Below, piece after piece: positions 1,810 to 52,837 of a stretch of DNA of 64,000 bases; the stretch's first letter is position 1, and every line of letters starts with the position of its first letter. The notes beneath the pieces are model-generated. The model saw only the letters and a list, made by a program, of their open reading frames with translations, was not told the DNA's origin and did not search any database. The stretch is from positions 128,001 to 192,000 of the forward strand of contig OZ219786.1 in NCBI GenBank assembly GCA_964291285.2, in the 5' to 3' direction. The stretch is from Alphaproteobacteria bacterium (lineage in GTDB: Bacteria; Pseudomonadota; Alphaproteobacteria; Bin95). Made by a program: the position numbers and the translations under genes.

Positions 1810-1836
1810 TGTCATGAAGTGTCATGTTCTGTCATG
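1810..1836. repeat. TGTCATG x3 array with 10-bp period (end of dispersed element copy A)
   Basis: GTCATG at 1811, 1821, 1831. Confidence 0.9.
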
Positions 1837-1874
1837 TCCGGGGATGCGCGCGCCTCCCGCCGGCCCCCTTTCCA

Positions 1875-2870
1875 TCATGCCCGGACTCGTTCCTGGCATG
1901 ACGATGTGAGGCCATGGCGGGAAGAGGGCCGGTCCGGCAGGAAGCTGCCGTCGTCGAAGCCGTCCCGCCGGTCCTTACCGTCCTCGTCGAAGGGGTCGTC
2001 GCCGCAGCGCCTCTCTTCCCGTTCGATCCGGTTCCGCCTGCGTTCCTCGACCTCCTCCGGGGCCCAGGGGTCGTAGATGTCGTCGTAGCCGTTGCGGCGC
2101 TGGTAGAGCCAGTCGTGTTCGGCGCTGTCGGCCCGGTCGTCGTCGATCCTGTCCTCGTGGCCGGGCGTGTCGGCGGCGGCCCAGGGGCAGTATTCGTAGG
2201 TCTCCTCGGGCGGGTCGTCGGCCGGCGGCAGGTCGTCCGGGGGCGGTGCGGGCAGCCCGAAGCCGAAGGGCAGGCGGGAGCGCTCCTCGACGGCCGCGGC
2301 GAGCCTGCGGGCGGCCTCCCCGTGCGCGGCCCCGTCGAAACCGTCGCGCGCCTCCATCGCCTCCCGGCAGGCATGGTGGCGTTCGAGCGCGCGTTCGGCC
2401 CGCTCCTGCCCCAGGCGCACGGCTTCGGCGAGCGGCCCCGGCTCGGTGCCGGCTGCGCGCGCCTCGCCCGCTTCGATCTCGCCGAACTCGTCCTCGTGCG
2501 GCATCGGCCAGAGGCGGGCGCGGTTGGCCCCGCCGGGCTTCACCAGGCCGGTAATCTCCGCCTGGAAGCGCAGCACCCGGAGCATGGTGTGGGCCGAGCC
2601 GCTGGCGACGGCGGCGTCCCAGACCTGCTCCAGCCGGGCCAGCAGGATGGCGGCTTCGTCCTTTTCGGTGCGCTTCCACGACAGGCGGATGCGGCGCAGG
2701 CGCTCGACGATGTGAGGGCGCTCCAGCAGGGCGCATCCGGTCTGGCGGGCGGAGCGTTCTGAGTAGCCGGCCCGCCTTGCGGCGTCGGCGGCATTGCCGG
2801 AGACGGCATAGTGGCGGCAGAAGGCCTCCTGACGTGTGGAGAGCGCAATGGCGGGGTCGATGATGGGCAT
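1875..2870 (-). CDS. Protein with N-terminal terminase small subunit-like HTH domain and acidic low-complexity C-terminus
   Basis: RQEAFCRHYAVSGNAADAARRAGYSERSARQTGCALL matches the Terminase_2-type N-terminus (Q.F..EY....NAT.AA..AGYS...A); AAAGGAG upstream of ATG 2870. Confidence 0.7.
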   Translation of the reverse strand: MPIIDPAIALSTRQEAFCRHYAVSGNAADAARRAGYSERSARQTGCALLERPHIVERLRRIRLSWKRTEKDEAAILLARLEQVWDAAVASGSAHTMLRVLRFQAEITGLVKPGGANRARLWPMPHEDEFGEIEAGEARAAGTEPGPLAEAVRLGQERAERALERHHACREAMEARDGFDGAAHGEAARRLAAAVEERSRLPFGFGLPAPPPDDLPPADDPPEETYEYCPWAAADTPGHEDRIDDDRADSAEHDWLYQRRNGYDDIYDPWAPEEVEERRRNRIEREERRCGDDPFDEDGKDRRDGFDDGSFLPDRPSSRHGLTSSCQERVRA

Positions 2871-3127
2871 GGGGCGGCGGCTCCTTTCGTTCCGCTGGCG
2901 TTCGACAAACAAACCCGGCTGCGGTACGGGACCGCGCCGGGCCGGGGGGCGGCGTTGACGGGCAGCACCGCCCCGTCGGGGAGCGACCCTGTTTCGCGCG
3001 TATCGCGTGCGGGCGCGGGCGGGTGTCGGCGCCGGCGCGGTTCGCGCGCCTGATTGCGCGCGCGAGCCGCAGGGCGCACTTCGCCTGTGCGTCGAATCGG
3101 GGTCGTTCCGCGCCGGGCCGGCGCGAA

Positions 3128-3159
3128 GGGAGGCGAAGTCCGCGCGGACTTCGCCTCCC
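3128..3159. repeat. Perfect 32-bp palindrome
   Basis: GGGAGGCGAAGTCCGC|GCGGACTTCGCCTCCC. Confidence 0.9.
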
Positions 3160-3351
3160 CCGGACCTATCTAGGCATAGATTTTCCGGAGGTCAAGTCTT
3201 TTTCAGGAAATGTTTCTGATTTTTTAAACGAACTGAGATTTCAACAACCGGAACACAAGGCAATACCCGTCCCGGCCCTTCCCCGTCATACCCCGTATCG
3301 TCATGCCCGCCAAAGCCGGACCGGGGCGGCGATTGCGGGATTGCACTGCCT

Positions 3352-7296: not shown

Positions 7297-7373
7297 TGGC
7301 GCGCCCGGCACGACTCGAACGTGCGACCTTCTGCTCCGGAGGCAGACGCTCTATCCGACTGAGCTACGGGCGC
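7297..7373 (-). tRNA. tRNA-Arg(CCG)
   Basis: Reverse complement GCGCCCGTAGCTCAGTCGGATAGAGCGTCTGCCT-CCG-GAGCAGAAGGTCGCACGTTCGAGTCGTGCCGGGCGCGCCA; cloverleaf with encoded CCA. Confidence 0.96.
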
Positions 7374-27806: not shown

Positions 27807-28069
27807 AGCGGATTTCGGCGGAAATGCTGCTGACCGCCTACCGGCTGGGGCTTTTCCCCATGGCGGACGGGCGCAGTTCGGACACGCTTTACTGGCTGGA
27901 CCCGCGCCGGCGGGGCGTCATTCCGCTCGACGGCTTCCATGTACCGCGGCGCCTCGCCCGCACCGTCCGCCAGGGCCGGTTCGAAGTTGTGGTCGACGGC
28001 GATTTCGACGCGGTGATCGCGGCCTGCGCCGAGCCGCGTGCGGATGACGGCGACACCTGGATCAATGAC

Positions 28070-29765
28070 CCTAAATCCGGCATTTGAGGATGGCGTGGCC
28101 TTGCCGAATCCCTTGTAGTCTGCGGATATGAGCGGCTTTTCAGGGGCCGAAGAGGCTCACCCTGTGGGTGATTATCCTGGCGCTGTGCGGGATGTCGCCC
28201 GAGCGTCGGTGAAGGTGGACACCTTCGGCGGCGCGGTTCATGTGGAATGGGACCCTGATGCGGCGGTAACGCCGCTGGGCCATCTGGCGTTTTTCGCGGA
28301 ATAGCTGAAGGTGAGCGGTCGCTTTGACGCTTTGGTTGCGGACTGCCCGCTGCGGTACACGAGCCCGAACGCGCCGTCGAAGCGGGATGTCCTGGGGACG
28401 GTTCTTCTGTCGGTTCTGGCGGGGCAATCGCGGTATGCGCACATCACGTCGCTGCGCGGCGACGGGGTGAACCCTGCGCTGCTGGGTATGGACAAGGTTG
28501 CGAGCGAGGATTCGGTGCGGCGCGGTCTGGAGCGGATCGGTGCGGAGGCCGGCACATCGTGGCTTCAGGGCCATCTGGACGAGGTGGTCCGTCCGCTGCT
28601 GAGGGAGCCGTGGGTTCTGGACTGCGACACGACGATCAAGGCGCTTTACGGTCGTCAGGAGGGAGCGGTTGTGAGCTACAACCCGAAGAAGCCGGGCCGC
28701 CCCTCGCATGCCTGCCATGCGTTCCTGATGGCGGGCACGCGGCTTGTTCTTGATGTCGAGGTGGCGCCGGGCAACCATCACCATTCGAGGCGCGCGGCGC
28801 CGTCCTTGTGGGCGTTGCTCGACCGTCTTGGGCGGGATCGCTGGCCGCGTCTGGTGCGGGGCGACAAGGACTGGGGCAGCGAGGCCAACATGGCGTCGTG
28901 CGAGGCTGCGGGTCCGGACTATCTGTTCAAGCTGCGCCTGACGAAGGGGGCGCGCCGGCTTGCCGGGCGGCTGATGGCGCGGGACGGCTGGGAGGATGCG
29001 GGCCAGGGCTGGTCGGGGATCGGGGCCGATCTGCGTCTGCAGGGCTGGAGCCGGACGCGCCGGGTTGTGGTGCTGCGCCGGCGGCTTCCTGCGACGCTGG
29101 CGCTGACGCGTGGCGACAAGGCCCGGGGCGAGCTGTTCCGGACCGGGGCGCAGCCCGGCACCGGGGTGTGGGAGTTCGCGGTGCTGGCGACCTCGCTGGA
29201 CCTGGAGATACGCTCGCTGGCCCGGCTCTACCGCGACCGGGCGGACGCGGAGAACGGCTTCGACGAGTTGAAGAACCAGTGGGGCTGGGGCGGCTTCACC
29301 ACGCGCGACCTGACGCGCTGCCGGCACATGGCCCGGCTGGTCGCGCTCATCTGCAACTGGTGGAGCCTGTTCGTGCGCCTCGCCGACCCCGACCATCACC
29401 GCGAGGCGATCACCAGCCGGCCGCTGCTCCTGCACGGGGTTGCCCGCCAGACCCACCACGCCGGCCAGACCCGGCTGACGGTGACCTCCCATCACGGGCG
29501 TCGCAAGACGGTGATGGCGGCGCTGCGCCGGATCGCCGGCTTCTTCCGGTCGCTGACGCAAACTGCGGAGCAGTTGAGCGCCGGGGATCGCTGGCGCCGC
29601 ATCCTCGCCGAGGCGCTCAGGAAATACCTCCATGGCCGCGAACCGGGGCGTCAACCCTGGCTGCCGCCACCCAGGGCCGCGACCGCGTGCTGAAATCCAC
29701 GCCCAAATCCGGCCGTTCACACTACCCCGAGACAGCGATCAAGCCCGTCAAATGCCGGATTTAGG
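28070..29765 (+). mobile_element. IS1380-family insertion sequence
   Basis: 18-bp perfect terminal IR CCTAAATCCGGCATTTGA; 5-bp target duplication ATGAC at 28065-28069 and 29766-29770; 1696 bp. Confidence 0.9.
28128..29693 (+). pseudogene. IS1380-family DDE transposase with an in-frame TAG
   Basis: VDTFGGAVHVEWDPDAAVTPLG upstream, TAG at 28302-28304 (FFAE*LKVSG), then LDCDTTIKALYGRQEG, RGD, YRDRADAENGFDELKNQWGWGGF. Confidence 0.82.
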
Positions 29766-30143
29766 ATGACGACATCCTGCGGCTATACCGGGAGCTCCAC
29801 CGGAAAGGCGCGGCGCACAGCGTGGAATGCCGGCTGGAAGGGCGGCTGGCGGGCGGCCTTTACGGCGTGGCCATCGACGGCGCCTTCTTCGGGGAGAGCA
29901 TGTTCTCGCGGGCCAGGGATGCGAGCAAGGTAGCGCTGGTCCACCTCGCGGCCCGCCTCCGGATCGGCGGCTACCGCCTTCTGGACACGCAATTCTTCAC
30001 CGAACACCTGGCGACCTTCGGCGCGGTGGAAGTCAGCCGCACGGACTATCGCCTCCGCCTCAAGGCCGCACTGGAGGTGGAGGCCGAGCTGCCGCGCGAC
30101 CTGCCGGAAGGACAGCTGGAGCGGTTCCTTGCTTCGGCGCGGG

Positions 30144-31187
30144 TCAGGCCGCTTCCAGAGGCACAACAGGCACCGCGTCCTTGACCACGATGCCGCCCCG
30201 GTCGCCCGGCCGGACGCTGCCGTAGCGGGCGGCAAAGGCCTCCGGAAGCCTGCGTCCCTCGGGCGGGCACAACCAGAGCCGCAACAGGTGGCGGCGGCGC
30301 TCCGGCTCCGGCCAGTCCTCGAAGGCGGTCCGGTCGTGCAGGATAACGTGGTTGCAGAGGAACTGCATGTCGCCGGCCTCGAACGCCATGTCGAGCCGGA
30401 ATTCACCGCTGTTACAGAGCGAGTCGAACAGGTCGAGGGCTTCTACCTGTTTCGGCGTCAGCGCCGGAACCTCCGGGAAGCGGCGCGCGGACTCGATGTA
30501 GCGCCGCGTGTAGATCGTGGTCAGCTCGTCGCCGATCCGGTTGAAGACGGGCAGCGCGAACCAGGGCTTCATGCCCTCCGGCACCTCGCCGCGCCGGTCG
30601 ACAATGAACGGCTCGTAGAGCTCGGCCGCAAGGTCCGGGCGCCGCCGCGCCATCTCGTTGTGGACGGCAACCGAACTCACGATGGAGCTCAGGCCGCCGG
30701 AGCGCGCCGGGTGCAGGCACATCAGCGCAACGATGTCCACTGAATCGGTGTGGAAAAGCTGGCGTTCGCGGGTCTGGTACACGCGGACATTGGGATCGCT
30801 GCTGTGCAGGCCCACATCCTTCACATGGCCCATCAGGTGGCCCCTGGCGTTCTGCGAGCGGGCGCTGCCGAAATGCGCGCCGATGCCCCAGAAGGCGGCC
30901 ACGGCCTCTTCCCGGCTCATTCGCCCGACCGGCAGGCCGCGCAGCAGGAAGAACCCCCTGCCCTCCAGCAGTTCGCGCCTGAGCCCGGCGAGCTTCGGAC
31001 CCAGCACCGGCAGCGGGAATGCCGCCTTGTCCACCTCGATCAGGGGCCGGTCGATGGCCGCGACCGCGCGGTCGATTTCCCCGATCTCGGCATCGGAGAG
31101 GCGAAGCTCCCATCCGCTCCCGGCGCACATCTCCGGGCCGCGCCAGGCTGCCGGGCTGTCGAGGACTTCTGGAGAAACTGTCGTCAT
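30144..31187 (-). CDS. TauD/TfdA family dioxygenase
   Basis: [33 protein letters not shown]. Confidence 0.88.
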
Positions 31188-32694: not shown

Positions 32695-33165
32695 AGGATG
32701 CTTCAAATATGAAAAAAATCTAATTAATCTGATTTTTGTTTCATATTTGATCTTGACATCTGGCGGATTGTGGTATGATGGTCCCCAAGGAAGCGGAATC
32801 CGGAGCCGCGTCCCCGGGTGCCGCGCGGCCGAGCGGCGCCGGTTTCTGAAAACCCGTGAGAAGCCGACGGGAGACGTGCGTCCTGCGTCTCGCGCGCGCA
32901 ATCAGGCGCGCGAACCGCGCCGGCGCCGACACGCGCACAGGCGCCCGCGCAGGATACGCGCGGAAAAGGGACCCGCTCCCCGTCGGAGCAAGGAGGAACG
33001 ATGAAGGCAACCCACCCTCGCCCCGGTCATGTCGAACCGCTGCCCCTTTTTCTCCTCGCACCCGGCAGGAGGTCAAAAAGCGGAGAGCCTTATGCCCGAA
33101 CCGGCTACAGAACATACGCCCCGCGCATGGGAAACATGACAGATCATGACATCCCATGACATACC
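32695..33165 (+). repeat. Dispersed element copy B (short form); boundaries approximate
   Basis: AT-rich end with TTGACA at 32753; core GCGCGCAATCAGGCGCGCGA 32894-32913 and GATACGCGCG 32953-32962; CATGAC at 33135, 33145, 33155. Confidence 0.82.
33001..33159 (+). CDS. Putative 52-aa small ORF within element B
   Basis: AAGGAGGAACG immediately before ATG; ends ..RMGNMTDHDIP* inside the CATGAC array. Confidence 0.3.
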   Translation: MKATHPRPGHVEPLPLFLLAPGRRSKSGEPYARTGYRTYAPRMGNMTDHDIP

Positions 33166-35919: not shown

Positions 35920-35955
35920 CATGACACTTCATGACATCCCATGACACTTCATGAC
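35920..35955. repeat. Solo CATGAC x4 array with 10-bp period
   Basis: CATGAC at 35920, 35930, 35940, 35950. Confidence 0.9.
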
Positions 35956-49359: not shown

Positions 49360-49870
49360 GCGGGCGTGTCATGGGATGTCATGTTTTGTCATGAGGACCG
49401 GCGGGACAGCGTTCGATATGTCATGAGATGTCATGTTCTGCATGCGCACGGCGCATGTCCCGTGGCCGGTTCCGGCATGAGGTAGTCGTTTCGGGCGGGG
49501 TTCCGGGTATTCCATCCCGTTTCCCGGCTTCCGCATCTTCGGCATGCGTTCCTCCTCTCGAACCGTCTTCGTTCCATTCTCTCCGCTGCCCGGTTCCTCC
49601 GTGCGGCGGGACCCTAATTCGCGCGTATCCTGCGCGGGCGCCCGCGCGCGTTTCGCGGCGGCGCGAATCGCGCGCCTGATTGCGCGCACAAGACGCGGGA
49701 CACACTTCTCCTGTCAGCTTCCCGGGTTCTTTTTTTCGCGCCGGCGCGAAACAGGAAAGAGAGCGGCCCCGCGCGGATGCCGCCTCCTTCCTCTGGCCTG
49801 ATCCGGGTATTCTATACTACCTGTCAAGCCCATAGTCAGAATTATTTCAAATCATAAGAACAAGAAATTT
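49360..49870 (-). repeat. Dispersed element copy C (short form); boundaries approximate
   Basis: GTCATG at 49368, 49378, 49388 and 49420, 49430; core 20-mer at 49668-49687; CGCGCGTATC at 49620-49629; AT-rich end with TGTCAAG near 49822. Confidence 0.82.
49369..49545 (-). CDS. Putative 58-aa small ORF within element C
   Basis: GAGGAGGAACGC before ATG; ends ..RMQNMTSHDI..MTKHDIP* inside the CATGAC arrays. Confidence 0.3.
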   Translation of the reverse strand: MPKMRKPGNGMEYPEPRPKRLPHAGTGHGTCAVRMQNMTSHDISNAVPPVLMTKHDIP

Positions 49871-51385: not shown

Positions 51386-52837
51386 GGTCGTGTCCCCAGG
51401 GGTGGTGTAGGAGCTGAAGCTTCCGGTGGTAGCTGTGGGTAAGTGGCCCGCCGCCGCGACCGTCTGGAGTCAGGCGGCGGCGGGCCACTTACCCACAGCG
51501 GAGGCCATCGCGGTGCCGGTTAGGGTTGGGCTGTCACAGTCCACCTGACCGGAGGAGTACCACGATGACCACCACCGACATGATGACCCTGCGGGCGCTG
51601 TTGGAGAAGAGTTCCGACGCCGACCTGCTTCGCGAGATGATCGGGTTCACGGCCGCGCGTCTGATGGCGCTTGAGGTTGAGGGCCTTGCGGGCGCCGCGC
51701 ACGGCGAGCGCTCGCCGGACCGGATCACGCAGCGCAACGGCTACCGGGACCGGGTCTGGGAGACGCGGGCCGGCACGGTCGAACTGAAGATCCCGAAGCT
51801 GCGCAAGGGGAGCTACTTCCCGGGCTTCCTTGAACCGCGGCGGATGGCGGAGAAGGCGCTGACGGCGGTGATCCAGGAGGCCTACATCAAGGGCGTATCG
51901 ACCCGCTCGGTGGACGACCTGGTGCAGGCGATGGGCATGTCGGGCATCTCCAAGAGCCAGGTGTCGCGGCTGTGCGGCGAGATCGACGACAAGATCCGCG
52001 ACTTCCTCGACCGGCCGCTGGAGGGCGACTGGCCGTATCTCTGGCTTGACGCGACCTATGTGAAGATGCGCGAGGCCGGGCGCGTCGTCTCGGTCGCGGT
52101 CACCATCGCGGTGGCGGTCAACGATCAGGGCCGGCGCGAGGTGCTCGGCATGGCGATCGGCGCGTCCGAGGCCGAGACCTTCTGGACCGACTTCCTGCGC
52201 TCGCTCGCCCGCCGCGGCCTGCGCGGCGTCAAGCTGGTGATCTCCGACGACCACAAGGGCCTGAAGGCCGCCGCCACCCGCATCTTCGGCGCCACCTGGC
52301 AGAGATGCCGCGTCCACTTCATGCGCAACCTGCTCGCCCATGCCGGCAAGCAGGGCCGGCGCGTCGTCTCCGCCTTCGTCACTACCGCCTTCGCCCAGGA
52401 GGATGCAGACAGCGCCTCCGCCCAGTGGCGCCAGGTCGCCGACCAGCTCAGGCCCAAGGCGCCAAAGCTCGCCGCCATCATGGACGAGGCCGAGCACGAT
52501 GTTCTCGCCTACATGACCTTCCCGGCCGCGCACCGCGCCAAGCTGCACTCGACAAACCCGCTCGAACGCCTCCACGGCGAGATCAAGCGGCGCACAAACA
52601 CCGTCGGCATCTTCCCCAACGAGGACGCCATCACCCGGCTGATCGGCGCAATCCTGCTCGAGCAGAACGATGAATGGGCAGTCCAGAGAGCCAGATACAT
52701 GACGCTGGAATCCATCGCTCCCGTGAGCGACAATACAACCGTCAAGTTGCCCGCCGTGGCAGCCTGAGCGTTCCGGCCCTACCCGCCGGACACCGCTACG
52801 GACGCCAGGCTCTTACACCACCCGCGGGGGCACGATC
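51386..52837 (+). mobile_element. IS256-family insertion sequence
   Basis: Imperfect terminal IRs (GGTCGTGTCCCC..GGTGGTGTA / TACACCACC..GGGGCACGATC); 8-bp target duplication CCCGGACG at 51378-51385 and 52838-52845. Confidence 0.93.
51565..52767 (+). CDS. IS256 family transposase
   Basis: [46 protein letters not shown]. Confidence 0.96.

Follow-up and report, generated by a model that had tools for sequence, protein, structure and literature searches.

Terminase-small-subunit-like genes in a dispersed repeat cassette, and a candidate gene transfer agent, in an alphaproteobacterial genome

The TerS-like gene and its cassette

The window, by which we mean the whole 64,000-nucleotide stretch of DNA that was analysed, contains on its minus strand at 1875..2870 a gene for a protein of 331 aa, payload A, composed of an HTH (aa 12-49), a helical hairpin (aa 52-107) and an acidic tail. 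The earlier note had read this gene as encoding a terminase small subunit (TerS)-type N-terminal HTH followed by helical segments and an acidic tail, and had suggested a Pfam search; the domain and the architecture are both borne out. Terminase_2 (PF03592) spans aa 11-84 (E 4.5e-13; 50.5 bits against a cut-off of 26.1), the phrog_51 terS profile matches with E 5.7e-15, and a search of phage records returns 151 matches, with the majority of the 25 listed annotated as terminase small subunit. In an AlphaFold2 model based on 47 sequences, the HTH is formed by three confidently predicted helices and the hairpin by helices 52-90 and 93-107 (pLDDT 86-93), while the acidic tail is mostly of low confidence. 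The top four rows of a Foldseek search with payload A are all SF6 TerS (3zqq, E 0.016), although none of the rows reaches E 0.001, and Foldseek superposes the model on 4zc3 with an rmsd of 0.8 Å over 50 columns. An N-terminal HTH and a central helical-hairpin core, the features of a Terminase_2/SF6-type TerS, are thus both present in the predicted structure. No cognate TerL in a phage head module lies beside the gene, which has host genes on either side, and an SPP1-type TerL (PF04466; Terminase_3) was detected in 0 of 17 genus genomes. Judged from its sequence, payload A is a TerS by domain, yet its context is not that of a phage gene.

The other elements of the cassette lie on the same strand. 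An AT-rich promoter-like block (3168..3250, with TTGACC at 3195-3190 and CTAGAT at 3173-3168), aligned over 88 copies, is followed by a conserved GC-rich leader, or core (2980..3167), that includes a first hairpin (3128-3159) and a near-invariant motif (3033-3057), and by a ribosome-binding site, AAAGGAG (2881..2887), that is kept among copies. Downstream of the gene are three CATGAC(A) boxes with a 10-bp period (1810..1836; boxes at 1836-1831, 1826-1821 and 1816-1811), a phased array that the earlier note had recognised and that is a candidate binding or packaging site. In the window copy, a short palindrome overlapping the stop codon (1872..1905) sits between stop and array, while the ORF of each of the nine remaining full copies terminates inside the array; we take this palindrome to resemble REP-type repeats. 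The cassette is flanked by two converging host genes, presumably an acyl-CoA synthetase-like gene and a gene for a substrate-binding protein, and its promoter contains no LexA box within 1 mismatch.

Two further cassette copies are found in the window, one at 32723..33160 (plus strand) with a core, a short ORF whose start by eye resembles that of a second payload (payload B, described below) and a three-box array, and one at 49368..49852 (minus strand) with a core, a short ORF and two arrays. A motif scan also located a four-box array without a detectable core (35920..35955, plus strand), and the window contains CATGAC 69 times, where shuffled sequence has it 29.7 times on average and 44 times at most. 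Two transposase genes are present at 28332-29693 and 51565-52767, the former interrupting a gene that spans 27824-30184 and that we assume to be leucyl/phenylalanyl-tRNA-protein transferase-like. A tRNA-like gene (7297-7373, minus strand) was spotted by eye upstream of a multicopper oxidase gene.

The gene had also been called an orphan with no phage context. The first description, in the sense of a single gene without partners, does not stand, as the genome holds ten full copies and, on contig C1, a T7-like head cluster with a TerL. The second is right for the window, in which the gene calls, read by eye, include no phage structural gene, but not beyond it: the C1 cluster lies elsewhere in the genome, and a satellite-like element is found about 33 kb to the left of the gene. 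This element (C2:85332-96896; L015, L016) encodes a portal, protease, capsid, phrog_9 TerL and integrase, along with a primase-like gene split by an insertion sequence, and presumably resembles a capsid-forming PICI. A tie between it and the cassette finds no support: its TerL is phrog_9-type, and 8 kb separate it from the closest cassette.

The cassette family in the genome

The cassette layout in this genome (G000) comprises the promoter-like block, the GC-rich leader, the payload and the 10-bp-phased CATGAC array, in about 1.4 kb. A tblastn search with payload A finds 18 places, consisting of 10 full copies (329-336 aa), 7 N-terminal remnants and 1 C-terminal piece; the nine other full copies are 81.5-83.3% identical to the window copy. 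With a profile of promoter and leader, 100 places are found, and the core of the leader is strongly conserved among copies. A two-box array lies downstream on the same strand within 3 kb of 90 of the 100 cores (84 within 1.2 kb), and none of the cores has an array on the opposite strand or within 300 nt upstream. The payload of these cassettes is a full A in 10, an A remnant in 8, a long B in 6, a B remnant in 16 and neither in 60. Cassettes are spaced about 55 kb apart on the three large contigs, with the two strands equally used. There are 164 arrays in the genome, in which CATGAC recurs at a spacing of 10 on 275 occasions and at any other spacing under 40 nt on at most 31.

In 43 of the 88 copies, the cassette promoter reads TTG..TAnnnT with a spacer of 15 nt (1.3 when shuffled, maximum 5), whereas the spacer in host upstream regions peaks at 17 nt. 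A canonical sigma-70 promoter with a 16-18 nt spacer was rejected, being present in 7/88, which is chance level. The host LexA box (GAAC-N7-GAAC / GTTC-N7-GTTC) is perfect at lexA and has 1 mismatch at recA; boxes of this type within 1 mismatch are found in 17 of 88 cassette promoters, compared with 4.9 in shuffled sequence (maximum 10). The leader has 0 matches in Rfam at E up to 1, and Alifold analysis of 36 rows places covariation in the first hairpin only, where two pairs have both sides changed in 12/32 and 6/32 rows.

Perfect LexA boxes also precede a multi-copy family of small HTH ORFs, possibly parts of SOS-controlled transposases (e.g., C1:1068193, C2:26397, C2:815282, C3:1818595, C3:2039052 and C5:113545). 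By eye, a TAGGA(A) motif is seen between -35 and -10 in the C1 cluster promoter (L124:2870-3045), in several cassette promoters and in the TerS promoters of a genome from another family (G033, L112-L118), and may possibly be a shared operator.

Each cassette is a single ORF with its flanking elements; integrase, replication genes and att sites are absent, and a comparison of filled with empty sites gave no consistent att-like repeat. Neither a cassette transposase nor a terminal inverted repeat nor a consistent target duplication was found, and the two ends are unlike each other; a possible 22-nt target duplication is present at one of the four sites printed, and none at the window site. A crude motif scan of the genome, too weak to exclude a helper enzyme, returned 0 Y1/RAYT proteins and one RT. 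The genome is rich in insertion sequences, and some cassettes contain them. They recur at two fixed cassette points (e.g., C2:1256600, C2:1109900, C1:257955 and C3:941317): an end that directly follows the array, which we take to be IS3-like, and an element at the leader end, which we take to be IS1634-like. An assembly artefact was considered for the window copy and rejected, as read contigs from three runs span both of its junctions without differences. Contig depth, a rough measure, is about 8-10x that of the flank over the payload A ORF and >100x over the core, and a viral-metagenome run (X17) contains short pieces of relatives only.

Distribution among relatives

Payload A matches are found in 12 of 16 genus genomes (7-17 each), in 2 of 8 other genomes of the family (one each) and in 2 of 16 more distant genomes. 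Among the 80 related loci, 77 were examined and 3 lack a start; the core was scored in 75, and the array in the 59 with enough flank. Whether homologues keep company with the repeats had been proposed as a check on the earlier reading, and within the genus they do (core upstream in 61/75, array downstream in 47/59). Beyond the genus the association lapses: the distant homologues in G033 (another family; 9 matches, of which the 8 viewed lack leader and CATGAC array) and G021 (1 match) are without both. Prophage remnants, which the note had named as speaking against its reading if they surrounded the homologues, were rejected as an explanation of the loci, since the 25 largest clusters of the 292 flanking proteins are, by eye, host genes, transposase and one integrase-like cluster of 4.

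In the more distant carriers of payload A, the promoter is short and in some of them includes a perfect LexA box, and phased repeats are either related or absent. In G033, the orphan TerS genes at loci L112-L119 are close relatives of one another, directly preceded by a short promoter and surrounded by palindromic repeats. In G041 (L082, L084-L086, L090 and L092), a phased repeat is found also inside the TerS-like ORF, where it is translated as repeated short peptides.

Of the 17 genus genomes, 14 have triple arrays (9-171 each), and these are precisely the genomes that contain cassette payloads; G001, G003 and G013 have zero. A reversed-motif control is zero in every genome. G011 contains payload A and no B, G008 contains at least 40 cores with one B and no A, and payload B was not found in G041-G044.

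A head cluster as a gene transfer agent candidate

Profile matches and gene order identify a T7-like head/short-tail cluster at C1:991737-1003907 (L124). It comprises a divergent S24 repressor, two small ORFs, a portal (PF12236, E 6.5e-117), a scaffold-like gene, a capsid (PF19821), tail tubes, an internal virion protein, a T7-type TerL (NF033889, E 2.7e-106) and GTA_holin_3TM, with an insertion sequence between the scaffold and capsid genes and a perfect LexA box in the promoter; no replication gene was found in the cluster. One copy of the cassette is located 1.5 kb left of the cluster. A single copy of the cluster TerL is present in 14 of 16 genus relatives, in 4 of 4 genomes of genus g2 and in G026 and G033, and gene order is conserved in the 6 full clusters viewed. 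In the TerL tree, G013 is basal, followed by G003 and then by the cassette-bearing genomes. Among the 20 phage records listed, no TerL is more than 31% identical to that of C1. The profiles PF03237 and PF17289 miss the C1 TerL, and negatives obtained with them are therefore weak.

Single copy, host inheritance and a head and packaging cluster without replication genes are features expected of a gene transfer agent (GTA), and the C1 cluster shows them; judged from its genes, it is an intact GTA candidate. PMC9254644 and 10.1101/2022.06.10.494566 treat RcGTA- and BaGTA-type clusters, and a literature search, outside which most subscription papers and supplements lay, found no description of the cassette or of the T7-like cluster. 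In G002 (95% complete, 550 contigs), which has 93 triple arrays and both payloads, the cluster capsid and TerL were not found, and in G041, which has several payload A homologues, the cluster TerL, capsid and Terminase_6C were not found. G003 has the whole cluster and no cassette, payload B, gene in the slot before TerL or detectable TerS.

Payload B, a relocated TerL-adjacent gene

When the first 85 aa of payload B are used as the query, the matches besides the cassettes are single genes directly before TerL in G013, G021 and G026, that of G013 being 57% identical (E 2e-18). In the 15 genus clusters, this slot gene is kept in 1 (G013) and lacking in 11, with insertions in 2 and a rearrangement in 1, while it is kept in 6 of 6 outgroup clusters; G033 keeps it in its cluster. 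A membrane ORF adjoins TerL in 11 of the 15 genus clusters, including G000, where it is 59 aa long and membrane-like. The B cassettes are the only detected source of the slot gene in most genus genomes. Because the cassette copies of B form a clade (bootstrap 91) that is sister to the G013 native gene (93 versus the outgroups), G013 is basal and 11 of the 15 genus clusters lack the gene in the slot, the sequences indicate that it moved out of the cluster and into the cassette within this lineage. Its cassette copies are under purifying selection, with a dN/dS of 0.41 over the first 80 aa (11 copies).

The native gene encodes 93-110 aa without an HTH, and the G013 protein is modelled as a two-helix hairpin (helices 5-31 and 42-71; pLDDT 87.6). 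Modelled in four copies, it gives an ipSAE of 0.61, against 0.01 for the best control, with contacts that agree to at least 83% and a partner pLDDT of at least 72. Among solved homo-pairs, 20 of 30 attained that mark, as did 1 of 23 single chains, which is a rough guide because this calibration used two copies. The predicted interface sets one face against a different face in a ring-like manner, and native B is predicted to form a homo-oligomer, face to back. Position, size, helicity and a missing HTH are criteria by which GTA TerS genes were predicted (PMC6854486). As modelled, native B fits this GTA-type TerS profile: it lies directly before TerL, has about 90-115 aa, is an all-helical hairpin, lacks an HTH and is predicted to oligomerise; the cassette copies do not lie directly before TerL. 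A third helix-like segment is present in the outgroup natives, short in G013 and replaced by an acidic proline-rich tail in cassette B. In the RcGTA TerS, the third helix binds TerL, according to the same source.

The payload B family comprises 678 protein clusters at E 0.001, and 118 of 122 aligned members match phrog_31793, a family of unknown function, with no common Pfam; a structure search with the B fold finds generic hairpins only. Payload B has no match in phage records or viral contigs, and an ESM Atlas search made alongside gave a best score of 0.87, a lead only. Between payloads A and B no homology was found in heads or tails (hhalign probability 0.1%), and at the level of sequence one cassette family carries two unrelated TerS-like genes.

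Selection, homogenisation and rearrangement

Purifying selection acts on the HTH of payload A: across 50 ORFs from 9 genomes, comparisons within and between genomes give a dN/dS of 0.09 and 0.14, respectively, for aa 10-60 and of 0.24 and 0.33 overall, against 0.32-0.52 in the tail. In the payload A tree, copies cluster by genome, with the exception of the window copy, which joins the copies of another genome; mean within-genome identity is 94%. Six pairs of copies that share a site show no greater similarity than other pairs from different genomes (e.g., 79.1% versus 78.5%), suggesting concerted evolution or repeated insertion. Cassette sites differ between species. Of 16 relatives, 6 have nothing inserted at the window site; G007 has another insert there, G002 an A cassette and G004 a reversed B cassette, and in the remaining 7 the site is rearranged or cut short.

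Cassette copies often mark rearrangements. In 35 of 40 copies from relatives, both flanks map to G000, in 12 of them together and in 23 far apart (hand count). Across 40 separate stretches of 20 kb, taken from four genomes, breaks in synteny fall at 12 of 17 junctions that hold a cassette, at 13 of 42 with a cassette in G000 only and at 40 of 424 without one (p 8e-9). An excess is also seen against cassette-free gaps of at least 300 nt (25/73, p 0.012), but it is gone against gaps of at least 1 kb (12/17 versus 17/34, p 0.23).

Interpretation

We favour, as a real possibility if one somewhat short of probable, that the cassette is a selfish module that steers the terminase of the GTA candidate to its own sites, because its two TerS-like payloads are unrelated and one of them comes from the resident cluster. 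Payload A would assemble into a TerS ring, with its HTHs contacting the 10-bp-phased CATGAC boxes along one helix face, and payload B, as the HTH-less TerS that belongs to the cluster, would act with TerL in trans. With both at work, packaging would begin at cassettes rather than at random, cassette DNA would become over-represented in particles, and breaks at arrays would be mended by recombination between cassettes, leading to homogenisation, payload swapping and rearrangements. Every step from array binding onward is one that we infer. The random packaging ascribed to GTAs is put down to small terminases that have no DNA-binding domain (PMC11841831). It is conceivable, and we put this forward tentatively, that the repeat family has taken over the DNA selection of a GTA by capturing its TerS, adding one of the HTH type and scattering about 100 start sites; random transfer would have become self-favouring, site-directed transfer, with chromosome reshuffling as a by-product.

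Several findings count against such a hijack. Payload A is of the SF6/SPP1 type, which is no known partner of a T7-type TerL, and cassette B is without the third helix that in the RcGTA TerS binds TerL (PMC6854486). G011 lacks B, G008 lacks A and the A-like copies of G033 lack arrays, while G003 has the cluster without a cassette and G002 and G041 have cassette genes without a detectable cluster. The last two genomes would equally suit a self-contained selfish repeat with no packaging role, in which payload A would pair or protect copies by binding the array of its own cassette, B was caught by chance, and spread would rely on recombination or on an enzyme borrowed in trans. Such a repeat would be consistent with copies that group by genome and not by site, with their 94% within-genome identity, with the state of the window site (empty in 6/16 relatives, an A cassette in G002, a reversed B cassette in G004) and with a genome rich in insertion sequences. 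We nevertheless consider it rather doubtful: a transposase, terminal inverted repeats and a consistent target duplication are all missing, selection on B is purifying (dN/dS 0.41), and the second long payload is a TerL-adjacent gene gone from its native slot, which chance capture would not predict.

Both payloads keep an oligomerisation core and carry long, fast-evolving acidic tails, and cassette B is without the third helix of the outgroup natives, as might be expected of decoy terminases, whose tail-altered TerS cores would poison the packaging of incoming phages or damp the resident cluster, with the arrays as operator or titration sites. The enrichment of LexA-type boxes in cassette promoters (17/88) and their perfect form in some distant homologues also agree with this, and defence by terminase blocking has been published (10.1101/2025.02.27.640495). 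We think this explanation unlikely, given that 0 of 3 proteins have a PADLOC match, that defence needs no ~100 copies, 60 of them without a trace of A or B, and that the native slot is empty, leaving B cassettes as the sole detected source of the gene in most genus genomes. More improbable still is a domesticated host system in which payload A, acting via the ~160 arrays, organises the chromosome or regulates transcription, with the leader as a regulatory RNA. The 164 arrays, the cassettes placed about every 55 kb on three large contigs with strands equal, the strongly conserved leader core and the fixed, unusual 15-nt promoter spacer would all accord with a host function, whereas three genus genomes are without arrays, counts vary from 9 to 171, cassette sites shift between species and covariation in the leader is confined to the first hairpin.

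Why cells keep GTAs is an open question, for which this repeat family offers a natural test. If the cassette does steer the GTA candidate, it would be a parasite of a GTA, or part of a GTA with addressable start sites; the phrog_31793 family, with its 678 protein clusters, would gain a first function, and there would be a minimal route to steer phage-like packaging toward chosen bacterial loci. Even without a packaging role, a 100-copy, concertedly evolving element without a transposase fits no class that we found.

Comparison with known systems

Payload A resembles G1P of the SF6/SPP1 pac phages (Terminase_2, phrog_51; 3ZQQ, 4ZC3, 2CMP) in its N-terminal HTH and helical hairpin, and also in that a candidate site is located at, or next to, the end of the gene itself. 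Unlike G1P, it is 331 aa long with a 220-aa extension, phage TerS being about 15-21 kDa (PMC9611059), and it is present in ten chromosomal copies with no adjacent TerL and no Terminase_3 TerL found in the genus. Native B is similar to RcGTA gp1 in lying directly before TerL, in its size of about 100 aa, in being all helical without an HTH and in its predicted oligomer. The C1 cluster differs from RcGTA in that it is T7-like and that B has moved to dispersed cassettes and acquired a new tail.

We considered and rejected the cassette as a PICI or as an IS/MITE, as hallmark features of both are missing; each nonetheless offers a parallel. PICIs and SaPIs redirect the terminase of a helper with their own TerS, and a cassette TerS acting in trans beside a candidate site could do likewise, carrying flanking host DNA. 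Unlike these satellites, the cassette is about 1.4 kb long and present in about 100 copies, has no integrase, replication module or att sites, and would have as its candidate helper a resident chromosomal cluster. MITE/IS and REP/REPIN-RAYT families are made up of few coding copies and many deleted ones, which are intergenic and homogenised within genomes. The cassette family is like them in having few coding and many deleted copies, in its intergenic location and in its homogenisation within the genome; it differs in that it has no transposase, inverted ends or consistent duplication and instead combines an asymmetric promoter-to-array layout with terminase-like proteins.
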